NCBI RefSeq assembly: GCF_036507355.1
Contig: NZ_AP027877.1
Source: Escherichia coli
Lineage (GTDB): Bacteria; Pseudomonadota; Gammaproteobacteria; Enterobacterales; Enterobacteriaceae
Strand: one strand, 5' to 3'
Length of the DNA stretch: 64,000 nucleotides
Both the position numbers and the translations under genes were made by a program. Positions 31,223 through 34,370 of this stretch are shown piece after piece; within the stretch, counting starts at the first letter, position 1, and every line of letters begins with the position of its first letter. Under the pieces are notes generated by a model. The model searched no databases, had not been told where the DNA came from, and was given only the letters and a program-made list of their open reading frames with translations.

Positions 31223-32098
31223 ATGGAAGATTTGAATGTTGTCGATAGCATAAACGGCGCGGGGAGCTGGCTGGTGGCTAACCAGGCGCTGCTGCTAAGT
31301 TATGCAGTAAACATCGTGGCGGCACTCGCGATCATCATCGTTGGTTTGATTATCGCGCGGATGATTTCCAACGCGGTGAATCGCCTGATGATCTCCCGTA
31401 AAATCGATGCCACTGTTGCTGATTTTCTTTCTGCATTAGTCCGTTACGGAATTATCGCCTTTACGCTAATCGCTGCCCTGGGCCGCGTGGGCGTACAAAC
31501 AGCGTCAGTCATTGCTGTACTCGGTGCCGCAGGCTTAGCTGTTGGTCTGGCTTTGCAGGGGTCACTGTCTAACCTGGCCGCTGGCGTGTTACTTGTCATG
31601 TTCCGCCCGTTCCGCGCCGGAGAATATGTTGACCTCGGCGGCGTAGCCGGTACTGTGCTGAGTGTGCAGATTTTCTCCACCACCATGCGTACTGCAGACG
31701 GTAAAATTATCGTTATTCCGAACGGTAAAATTATTGCCGGAAATATTATTAACTTCTCCCGCGAGCCAGTTCGCCGTAACGAGTTTATTATTGGCGTGGC
31801 GTATGATTCCGATATCGATCAGGTTAAGCAGATCCTGACCAATATTATCCAGTCTGAAGATCGCATTTTGAAAGATCGCGAAATGACTGTGCGCCTGAAC
31901 GAACTTGGTGCATCGTCGATTAATTTCGTGGTCCGCGTCTGGAGCAACAGCGGCGATCTGCAAAACGTGTACTGGGATGTGCTGGAGCGTATTAAACGTG
32001 AATTTGATGCCGCCGGTATCAGCTTCCCGTACCCGCAAATGGATGTGAACTTTAAGCGGGTGAAAGAAAATAAAGAAAACGAAGCGGTAACTCGTTAA
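31223..32098 (+). CDS. mscS: small-conductance mechanosensitive channel MscS, variant C-terminus
   Basis: 291-aa [55 protein letters not shown]...; ends ...[14 protein letters not shown] where I recall K-12 MscS (286 aa) ending ...KRVKEDKAA. Confidence 0.92.
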
Positions 32099-32139
32099 TC
32101 ATGTGAAGCGCCCATGAAATTCATGGGCGCACTACCAAT

Positions 32140-33183
32140 TTAACGCATTGTTTCATCAAGTATATTGGCAACTTTTTGCATGACTTCCCCGGCATTATCC
32201 ACGCCTTCAGTTTTTTGCTGTTCTACCCACTGCGTTTGCTCTTGCTGATAACCAATCGCTTTCTGCCAGGCGTCCAGCTCTGATTTTTTCAAATAGCGAA
32301 CCTGTGCACCTTCCTGCTCAAGCGTTTTTACCATGCTGATCAGGTTGTTATCTAATGCCTTGCCCAGCGCTTTCTCGGTTGTAATGGCCGCTCGTTGAAT
32401 AGCCTCACGATCTCTGTTATCAAGGTTTTCCCACGTTTGTTTATTCATTACCAACAGATAAACATGACCAAGCCAGAGCGAAGGGGAGAGCAACACATTC
32501 GGCGCAGCACGTTCAGCATGGATGTCATATCCGCTATCAAGATTGACCATTAAGCCATCGAGTTGTCCGTCGCGGAGTGCTGTCGTAATTTGCTCATTCC
32601 ACGGTAAGGTTACGGTTTTTGCCCCCGTATGAGTTAAATAAGCCCGGTGCCAGAAACTGGCTGTTCGCCAGGTGGTTCCCTGAAGTGCAGTCAATTTATC
32701 AATGGGCCTGGTAGAGAAAAAGCCTACCGGGTAGCCAAGGAAAAACTGTAAATTCACGATATTGTTACGCTCAAGTTCAGCGTTAAACTCGGGAATTTCC
32801 GCATATACGCGACGAAAGAATTCTACCTGACTGGCTCCATGATCCGGGCCAATAGCAAAGCTCTTGAAGATTTGATGAAGCGGTAATTGTTTCGCTGTGT
32901 ATTCCGGTACCACTATACCCATATCAGCTTTGCTACCATCACTTATTGTCGTCAGAGCGTCATAGCTGATGGCGGTTTCACCGTTCCAGTGTGGTTCGAT
33001 TTTCAAACGCCCCTGCGACTCTTTTTCAATTTCTGCAAAAAATATCTCTTTAATTATTTGTGTACGCATTCCCCCGTAGGGTTCATGGTCTGTATAACGA
33101 AGAATTTTTTCAGCGGCAACGTTGTGGGAAGATATCAGAAGTAATCCTGATACCAGAGAAAGTAAAAAGTGTTTGAATGTCAT
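32140..33183 (-). CDS. periplasmic solute-binding protein, DctP/TRAP-like, no DctQ/DctM partner nearby
   Basis: ORF 32140-33216; likely start MTFKHFLLSLVSGLLLISSHNVAAEK at 33183 (signal peptide); mature part resembles DctP-family binding proteins; no permease genes adjacent. Confidence 0.6.
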   Translation of the reverse strand: MTFKHFLLSLVSGLLLISSHNVAAEKILRYTDHEPYGGMRTQIIKEIFFAEIEKESQGRLKIEPHWNGETAISYDALTTISDGSKADMGIVVPEYTAKQLPLHQIFKSFAIGPDHGASQVEFFRRVYAEIPEFNAELERNNIVNLQFFLGYPVGFFSTRPIDKLTALQGTTWRTASFWHRAYLTHTGAKTVTLPWNEQITTALRDGQLDGLMVNLDSGYDIHAERAAPNVLLSPSLWLGHVYLLVMNKQTWENLDNRDREAIQRAAITTEKALGKALDNNLISMVKTLEQEGAQVRYLKKSELDAWQKAIGYQQEQTQWVEQQKTEGVDNAGEVMQKVANILDETMR

Positions 33184-33237
33184 CTCAGTTCCATCTGTAA
33201 TTTTATTGGTCGTCATTAATATTAAAAACCGTGAACT

Positions 33238-34167
33238 TTAACAACTAAAATCGAACTTCATATTTTTAAAGTCCAGCCACGCATTGCCAGTACCAAAATT
33301 ATACCCGCCGAAGTATTCTTCAAATTCAATATAAAAAGGTGACATTCCATCTGATATAGATTGAAATGGAACCATTGAACCACCGAGATGATCGGGTTGA
33401 TGTGCACTATGCCACTGGTGAGTTTCACATTTACTCTTTCCCTCTGCATCTTTAGAAAAATAACGAATGGACTGATATTCCGTATTATTTCTTTCTGTGG
33501 GGCTAATTCCCGCATTAGGATCAAAAGCGCGCGGCTTACATGAAATCGCCAGATTGAAAGCCAGCGACTGCTCAGGAATGGTGCCCATTTTACGGTATAC
33601 AAAATTGCTTTCAGGCGTATCTTTTGGTCTGACGCTTGCCTGAAAATAACTAAACGCACTGCCGGTGGTCATCCATTCTGGTGTATCTTGCTGGTTGCGA
33701 TAGTGATTAGGTATAAGTTCAGGCGGTTCACAAAATGGGCCGTTGAACTCTTGCTGGGTGAGTAAAATCACCGCATAAGAACAACCTAATATATCTTCCA
33801 TCCGAAATAGCCGTGGATGTCGTTGCTTTTCTGCCAGCCAGAAAACATAAAGGTCTGGATCTTCGGGGGGGTTGCAGGACTCGAAACTCTCAAACACATC
33901 CAATATTTCTTCTGTACATGGTGTTCCGCCATCGTTGTGCTCGGGCGCAACAGCAAAGAAAGATAACGCGACAATCTCTGGCCCATAAATCCGATAATCT
34001 TCTGGCAACAATAGGGTAAATCCATGATTCAATGGGAAACCATTATTTGGATCCAGCGGCCACTGTTCGGGCGTTATGCCTGGCGGTAGGCCAAAGCACC
34101 AACCTTGTTGGCGCGGTATATTTTCGCGAATAGGATGGGGCAAGAGGGTAAGATCATAAGCATGCAT
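33238..34167 (-). CDS. hypothetical cytoplasmic protein, DUF1963/YwqG-like (309 aa)
   Basis: ORF MHAYDLTLLPHPIRENIPRQQGWCFGLPPGITPEQWPLDPNNGFPLNHGFTLLLPEDY... ending ...HLGGSMVPFQSISDGMSPFYIEFEEYFGGYNFGTGNAWLDF; both ends resemble DUF1963 motifs; assignment from memory only. Confidence 0.55.
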   Translation of the reverse strand: MHAYDLTLLPHPIRENIPRQQGWCFGLPPGITPEQWPLDPNNGFPLNHGFTLLLPEDYRIYGPEIVALSFFAVAPEHNDGGTPCTEEILDVFESFESCNPPEDPDLYVFWLAEKQRHPRLFRMEDILGCSYAVILLTQQEFNGPFCEPPELIPNHYRNQQDTPEWMTTGSAFSYFQASVRPKDTPESNFVYRKMGTIPEQSLAFNLAISCKPRAFDPNAGISPTERNNTEYQSIRYFSKDAEGKSKCETHQWHSAHQPDHLGGSMVPFQSISDGMSPFYIEFEEYFGGYNFGTGNAWLDFKNMKFDFSC

Positions 34168-34370
34168 TGTGTGAGTCCTTTATAAAGCGAGGCCGTAATG
34201 GCCGTAGCACGATTCCTGTGAGCGATATTGTTATCCAAAAAATAGCCACGCATCCTGACTGTTCGTTTTTTTATTAATATTATTAATATGCTATTAAAAA
34301 TATCCATTTCCGCTAATGATGCTCACACGCTATAGTCTGCAAATCAGATAATTAGCTCGGAATAAATTAC

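Follow-up and report, generated by a model that had tools for sequence, protein, structure and literature searches.

Orphan periplasmic solute-binding proteins (SBPs) of the secondary-transporter (TTT) family are represented by the Bordetella 'Bug' proteins and by AdpC of R. palustris (review PMC5812351), and in a review of SBPs in signalling the proteins of the DctP family appear only as transport components. In another group of proteins that concerns us here, Burroughs and Aravind joined DUF1963/YwqG with eukaryotic PDCD2/Tsr4 in the TYPP superfamily, marked in their definition by the motif GGxP together with a Q that is conserved in the second repeat, and proposed for it the role of a chaperone-like protein-interaction module (PMC4275035); the eukaryotic relatives are described elsewhere (PMC7736825) as chaperones of the ribosomal protein uS5. 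Here we analysed a window of 64,000 nucleotides of Escherichia coli DNA (NCBI RefSeq assembly GCF_036507355.1, contig NZ_AP027877.1), and within it the spacer between the genes mscS and argO, which holds one gene for a DctP-type SBP (hereafter the SBP) and one for a 309-residue protein, predicted to be cytoplasmic, that we call hyp309.

Layout of the mscS-argO spacer

We consider it probable that the mscS-argO spacer is polymorphic for the presence of two accessory genes that are independent of each other, and that this polymorphism is old and recombining, along the lines of the mechanism proposed in the last section. The region is real but ordinary accessory variation that is already in RefSeq, with two unrelated functional genes in a hypervariable spacer. 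Its features in the window are the following.

31223-32098, plus strand: mscS, 291 aa (from the list of open reading frames; RefSeq WP_000389820)
32108-32130: hairpin, palindrome GCGCCCATGAAATTCATGGGCGC with a 10-bp GC-rich stem and a 3-nt loop, between the convergent mscS and SBP stops
32140-33216, minus strand: open reading frame of the SBP; 347 aa from the RefSeq start at 33183, or 358 aa from an ATG further upstream at 33216
32140-33183, minus strand: SBP, orphan DctP-superfamily periplasmic solute-binding protein, 347 aa (PF03480, NF037995 and PDB profile matches)
33112-33183, minus strand: predicted Sec signal peptide, MTFKHFLLSLVSGLLLISSHNVAA followed by EK, read from the sequence (basic n-region, hydrophobic core, VAA cleavage motif)
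33215-33224: left copy of the 10-bp direct repeat ATTAATATTA bounding the hyp309 segment
33238-34167, minus strand: hyp309 (RefSeq WP_071337506, 'hypothetical protein')
34168-34272, minus strand: 5' region of hyp309, including the ribosome-binding site AAGGA, 9 nt ahead of the ATG
34273-34282: right copy of the 10-bp direct repeat ATTAATATTA
34279-34306, minus strand (that of the SBP and hyp309): sigma-70-like promoter match TGGATA-16-AATAAT, a consensus match only
34371-35006, plus strand: argO, the conserved right flank

Nucleotide homology to K-12 stops at 32075 and restarts at about 34293. In the K-12 derivative BW25113, MscS has 286 aa and ends in KRVKEDKAA, and argO lies 138 bp further on with no gene between. 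An earlier reading made from the sequence only had placed two reverse-strand genes between mscS and argO and held them to be missing in K-12, and both the open reading frames with their coordinates and the comparison with BW25113 agree with it. On an E. coli O78 chromosome that is 99.8% identical, the SBP is annotated as 'C4-dicarboxylate TRAP transporter substrate-binding protein' (WP_000142899) and the 309-aa gene as 'hypothetical protein' (WP_071337506). The region of the hyp309 ribosome-binding site is common to the alleles of two other loci (L009 and L100). The sigma-70-like site falls in the region that also holds the divergent argO promoter, and sites of this kind are no commoner here than in shuffled sequence. 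In the upstream half of the argO promoter region (window about 34,271-34,300) there are about 20 nt more than in K-12, exactly at the point where the haplotypes diverge, and these could change the spacing of the ArgP-binding region.

At the other end of the spacer, codons 283-291 of mscS (32069-32095, NKENEAVTR) followed by the stop form a haplotype-specific C-terminal tail. There are three MscS tails, all of them diverging from codon 283: one of 291 aa here, one of 286 aa in K-12 (DKAA) and one of 283 aa (Q, the protein ending in KRVKEQ); in other genera the MscS variants have 284-292 aa. The proposal of the sequence-only reading that the proteins differ by 291 against 286 aa and that the junction lies within the last mscS codons thus holds.

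The convergent stops of mscS and the SBP are separated by a 41-nt spacer in which the hairpin lies. The 56-nt stretch 32090-32145 folds at -23.9 kcal/mol with a z of -6.7, none of 200 shuffled sequences folding as well, and the hairpin itself (32108-32130) has no T-tract and draws no call from a consensus terminator scan. All 17 of the other SBP-bearing loci that were folded, from 10 or more genera, form a hairpin at this place, with energies of -17 to -29 kcal/mol and with unrelated sequences. Each haplotype has its own MscS tail together with its own hairpin; the hairpin that follows hyp309 is similar in L100 and L009, and the haplotypes with hyp309 only have a hairpin different from that of the window. 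Because a hairpin stands at every convergent junction folded, each time with a different sequence, it would be an ordinary and probably bidirectional terminator, and we regard the one in the window as probably a terminator-type stem-loop. The hairpin pointed out in the sequence-only reading is hence real, but as a special feature it does not stand, given its equivalents in all 17 other loci.

Distribution, arrangement and age of the two genes

The presence of the two genes in the species was counted over 5426 complete E. coli genomes. The K-12 junction occurs in 5207-5209 of them and the SBP in 216, being absent from 96%, K-12 included; either the one or the other explains 5425 of the 5426 genomes. 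Among the 216 SBP-bearing genomes, hyp309 accompanies the SBP in 57-58, and haplotypes with the SBP only are frequent (for example, L002). A haplotype with hyp309 only is found in two Escherichia-like metagenome contigs (L099 and L100; OASX01001704 and OLIF01000042), where MscS ends in KRVKEQ (283 aa), and one enterobacterial contig (L009) has the reversed order argO, SBP, hyp309, mscS. The arrangements at the locus are therefore SBP only, hyp309 only, hyp309 before the SBP and the SBP before hyp309. In about 20 genomes of serotype O145:H28, hyp309 is interrupted by an IS3 and an integrase island, and the SBP is intact.

To see the genes in their other settings we used 80 SBP loci, one genome per species, 22 of them in the mscS-argO context and 58 in other contexts. 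None of the 58 has hyp309, and none of the 79 loci with hyp309 outside the enterobacterial locus (76 from metagenomes and 3 from genomes) has the SBP. The pairing of the SBP and hyp309 is local and shuffled, and the two genes are not a unit; the pairing made in the sequence-only reading gives way before the four arrangements at the locus and the lack of neighbouring elsewhere.

The interrupted allele can be followed in E. coli O145 RM9872 (L016, 4022-8717, equivalent to window position ~33,933), where an IS3-family element cuts hyp309 after about 231 codons. A tyrosine recombinase and a DEAD/DEAH helicase gene come after this element, so that a larger island has landed within hyp309. A different state is seen in contig SFKE01000080 of GCA_004553865 (L098, 6001-11399), with a truncated hyp309 (210 aa) beside argO and, in place of the SBP and mscS, genes for a homoserine dehydrogenase, a NUDIX protein and a carboxyltransferase; either the spacer has been rearranged in yet another way here or the assembly is chimeric. 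Between mscS and argO in the window we found no integrase, no transposase, no tRNA or att site and no inverted-repeat ends, the one repeat being the AT-rich 10-bp direct repeat around hyp309, and a search for transposon-like ends around hyp309 gave only AT-rich matches of 10-13 nt. Scans with PHROGs and PADLOC returned no matches, and an origin in a defence system or a phage was rejected on this ground.

The age of the SBP gene can be approached from its position and from its divergence. With unchanged orientation, it occupies the argO-mscS spacer of 22 species-representative genomes and of Yokenella, which amounts to at least 10 genera of Enterobacteriaceae (the others being Escherichia, Superficieibacter, Enterobacter, Huaxiibacter, Citrobacter, Lelliottia, Silvania, Klebsiella and Kluyvera). 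The synonymous divergence (dS) of the SBP from E. whittamii is 0.34, with 0.49-0.54 in the flanks, and that of hyp309 from the allele of L007 is 1.2, with 0.95 in argO. Within Escherichia the synonymous divergence follows that of the flanks, and the site is the same in at least 10 genera, which argues that the SBP is an old resident and that its absence in K-12 would be the derived state. The ratios of nonsynonymous to synonymous divergence (dN/dS), 0.11-0.135 for the SBP and 0.09-0.13 for hyp309, indicate that both genes are under purifying selection. A pseudogene or a remnant is rejected on dN/dS values of about 0.1 together with intact reading frames in many lineages.

Families and neighbours of the two proteins

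The SBP matches the Pfam family DctP (PF03480) with an E value of 8.6e-20 over residues 59-321 and passes the NCBIfam model TRAP_S1 (NF037995) with 61.5 bits for a cut-off of 50; it fails the canonical dctP model TIGR00787, with 20.3 bits for a cut-off of 175.05. A profile of 22 SBP homologues matches 50 solved TRAP SBPs, the best being 4PGN/4NAP (E 1.7e-20). The predicted signal peptide is without a Cys lipobox, a hydrophobic N-terminus is found in all of the 22 aligned homologues, and it is in the signal-peptide segment that SBP alleles diverge most. These matches and the signal peptide read from the sequence bear out the claim, made before any search, of a DctP-type SBP with a signal peptide. 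Within the motif WRTASFWH, R173 is invariant in the 22 sequences and aligns in an HMM alignment with an Arg of 4PGN, which we take to be the carboxylate-binding Arg of TRAP SBPs. The subfamily is tight, with a mean column identity of 58% and 44-50% identity out to contigs binned as Synergistota and Bacteroidota, and its invariant motifs are YTDHEP, VPEY, WRTASFWH, VNLDSG and LWLGH. It is also small: among 1.84 billion representative proteins there are 95 matches at E<=1e-30, compared with 4947 at E<=1e-3. A literature search on the RefSeq accessions returned nothing.

A permease for this SBP was sought both around the window and across its relatives. In a colinear strain of about 99% identity, no TRAP permease annotation was present within about 24 kb on either side. 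DctQ/DctM adjoined the SBP in none of the 22 mscS-argO loci, and no pair of proteins with 4 and 12 transmembrane (TM) segments lay nearby in 57 of the 58 other loci. The exception is a locus of Enterobacillus (L060), with a fused DctQM two genes from the SBP that comes with its own canonical DctP (201.8 bits on TIGR00787). The earlier statement that no DctQ/DctM permease is near the gene is thus confirmed, none being annotated in the 24 kb on either side in the colinear strain and none being adjacent in 79 of the 80 loci.

Recurrent neighbours of the family point elsewhere. Two-component pairs of EnvZ/OmpR or BaeS type adjoin the SBP in five loci (four of alphaproteobacteria and one of Pantoea), and in several alphaproteobacterial loci the neighbouring gene that diverges from it codes for a TetR-type regulator. 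One family member is fused to metallo-beta-lactamase and Cu_amine_oxidN1 domains, and in another the N-terminal region matches FMN_bind weakly (E 0.11). We regard these neighbours and fusions as leads, not as proof, for a role outside classical transport. The fused relatives are P0247 (613 aa) and P0242 (573 aa), and in six Synergistaceae loci (L066, L070, L083, L087, L089 and L092) relatives of the SBP adjoin a secreted SagB/nitroreductase-like protein and a CocE/NonD hydrolase.

For hyp309 we found no Pfam match at E<=10, and for 30 of its relatives none at E<=0.1, PF09234 included; NCBIfam, PADLOC and PHROGs gave no match for it either, nor did a PDB sequence profile search at E<=10. Its family is widespread, with 399 database matches in Pseudomonas, Bordetella, Paracoccus and Rhizobiales, and is well conserved, sharing the motifs GWCFGLPPG..PEQWPLDP, DPNAG, HIGGTMRPVQ and YIEFEE.FGGYNFG.GNAQLDF. 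The protein has neither a signal peptide nor a TM segment. It has the two-repeat all-beta fold of YwqG, and on structure only it is assigned to the YwqG/DUF1963 (TYPP) fold. In the HxGGxMxPxQ motif of the family, H260, G262, G263, M265 and Q269 are invariant and P267 is present in at least 90% of sequences, with a spacing that differs from that of GGxP. The DUF1963-like motifs which the sequence-only reading had assigned to the 309-aa protein are consequently upheld at the level of the fold, but not by the Pfam searches with the protein or with its 30 relatives.

In the 57 contexts of hyp309 that span at least 4 kb (3 genome and 54 metagenome loci), the search for a common neighbour gave only lineage-specific synteny. 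There is an SMI1_KNR4-ankyrin neighbour in one context and there are tandem copies in one; a role as immunity protein was set aside as having too little support in these two loci.

Elsewhere in the window, an ECF-type transporter cluster lies on the minus strand at ~23,890-26,966, between epd and a yggC-like kinase gene. Its genes encode two ATPases, the S and T components and a DNA-binding protein with a PPC domain, and as an accessory block it is carried by 3318 of the 5426 complete E. coli genomes. At 12,787-14,096, between loiP and speB, there is a copy of IS621 (IS110 family), where the otherwise colinear strain NZ_CP084096 carries IS1397; two distinct IS elements have thus landed in this intergenic site. 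About 130 bp are repeated, with 88% identity, at 17,281-17,409 and at ~31,056-31,092, in the fbaA-mscS intergenic region, and the repeat is probably an element of the REP/BIME type.

Competing explanations and comparison with known systems

In the mechanism that we propose, the gene for an SBP of a transporter-less DctP-type subfamily would have been settled in the mscS-argO spacer from an early stage of the Enterobacteriaceae on. Most strains of E. coli, K-12 among them, would have lost it, with another mscS tail and another hairpin now filling the site in K-12, and hyp309 would have entered or left the same spacer separately, on either side of the SBP gene. The SBP would be exported by Sec, its signal peptide being cleaved after VAA, would close on a small carboxylate-bearing ligand by means of the invariant Arg173, and would act without a dedicated DctQM permease. 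Its most likely role may be to sense a ligand for, or present it to, a partner whose gene lies elsewhere, for example a sensor kinase or a periplasmic enzyme, the feeding of a permease in trans appearing less likely. As judged from its fold family only, hyp309 would be a peptide- or protein-binding, chaperone-like module with no obligatory link to the SBP, and the hairpin would terminate the convergent mscS and SBP transcripts.

Several observations weigh against this proposal. The polarity of the change is not proved at the sequence level, and the 60-bp spacer of K-12, with the DKAA tail and its own hairpin, has no homologue in any of the SBP or hyp309 haplotypes fetched, where only chance matches of 12-17 nt were found; the K-12 form is thus not derived from a sampled haplotype by a mere deletion. 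The tree of the SBP is incongruent with that of the flanks (mscS, argO and yggE; loci L017-L038 and the window), the Escherichia SBP clustering with that of Superficieibacter/UBA5654, whose MscS shares the long tail of 291-292 aa, whereas the Escherichia flanks cluster with Citrobacter, and the Citrobacter SBPs are scattered across the SBP tree. In addition, two SBP alleles within E. coli are 16 times more different than their flanks. The incongruence and this allele divergence argue that SBP alleles have moved laterally or have been exchanged at the locus, and suggest allele replacement by recombination via the conserved flanks. The 10-bp repeat that bounds the hyp309 segment (33225-34272) and that is present as a single copy in three SBP-only loci (L002, L019 and L020) is ambiguous, fitting equally well the duplication made by an insertion and the scar of a deletion or slippage. 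The SBP and hyp309 are co-oriented, with a gap of 21-54 bp in the window and of 44 bp in the reverse order of L009, so that co-transcription is possible. As for the role of the SBP, two-component pairs adjoin it in only 5 of the 58 loci, and the FMN_bind match is weak.

The same facts may be read in other ways. If the whole 2.2-kb segment were a recent islet in a K-12-like ancestor, as the sequence-only reading had implied, one would understand its rarity in E. coli (about 1%, or 4% for the SBP), the lateral movement of SBP alleles between genera and within E. coli, and the direct repeat around hyp309. However, the segment is without integrase, transposase, tRNA and inverted-repeat ends, the SBP stands at the same site in 10 or more genera, and the divergence of the SBP and of hyp309 scales with that of the flanks in Escherichia; this explanation is to us the least likely of those considered, and the single inserted islet or gene pair falls with the finding that the SBP holds its position across the Enterobacteriaceae. 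We also regard it as very unlikely that hyp309 and the SBP make one functional operon, in which, for instance, the TYPP protein would act on the SBP precursor or on an imported ligand. The co-orientation with short distances in both orders, and the purifying selection on both genes, would fit such an operon, but each gene occurs alone at this locus, there is no linkage elsewhere (0/58 and 0/79), the genomes of O145:H28 keep an intact SBP beside a hyp309 cut by IS3, and one of the proteins is predicted to be periplasmic and the other cytoplasmic.

For the SBP on its own, the conventional explanation is that it is a normal TRAP component and delivers its ligand to a permease of DctQM type encoded elsewhere. 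E. coli carries one TRAP permease, YiaMN, which would be the candidate, and the DctP-family fold, the conserved Arg and the fused DctQM in the Enterobacillus locus are all in favour. TRAP SBPs are, on the other hand, usually specific to the permease encoded beside them, and no permease is adjacent in 79 of the 80 loci, which include contigs of Proteobacteria, Synergistota and Bacteroidota; moreover, the permease of the Enterobacillus locus has a canonical DctP of its own, scoring 201.8 bits on TIGR00787 against 20.3 for the SBP of the window. We therefore hold delivery to a distant permease to be rather unlikely. A more far-reaching version of our proposal, which we put forward only as a speculation and consider decidedly unlikely, is that the WRTASFWH/LWLGH subfamily would be the first DctP-type SBP acting outside transport, by sensing ligands or presenting substrates in the periplasm with sensor kinases or extracytoplasmic enzymes as its partners, and that the TYPP protein may have been recruited twice beside the SBP for a shared function. 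A role outside transport would explain the missing DctQM, the enzyme-like domain fusions in some phyla and the two-component neighbours in others.

Returning to the old, recombining polymorphism that we favour, its main consequence is that the view centred on K-12 is corrected, the reference strain having the reduced form at mscS-argO. The last residues of a channel as well studied as MscS vary by haplotype (283, 286 or 291 aa). Two uncharacterised subfamilies are opened to study in E. coli, namely a transporter-less DctP-type SBP that ranges from enterobacteria to Synergistota and one bacterial branch within the YwqG/PDCD2 fold, a fold without a known function in bacteria. Current concepts would change only if the SBP acted in signalling rather than in transport.

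Placed beside the systems described so far, hyp309 differs from B. subtilis YwqG (PDB 1PV5) and the TYPP proteins (DUF1963, PDCD2 and Tsr4) in its 14% identity, in having no PF09234 match and in an extra helical insert, and its relatives of about 470 aa have an N-terminal DUF7256 domain. The SBP resembles the Bug proteins and AdpC, which are likewise periplasmic SBPs of secondary-transporter families encoded without membrane partners (PMC5812351), but these belong to the TctC superfamily and not to DctP, and the Bug proteins are hugely expanded per genome, whereas the SBP of the window is single-copy at a conserved chromosomal site. With the DctP-type TRAP SBPs (4PGN/4NAP being the closest, and Bordetella 2PFZ/2PFY and SiaP also matched) it shares PF03480 over the whole domain, a predicted signal peptide and the aligned Arg in the hinge-proximal strand, and it differs from them by its low TIGR00787 score, by its own invariant motifs and by the absence of a cognate DctQ/DctM in 79 of the 80 loci.

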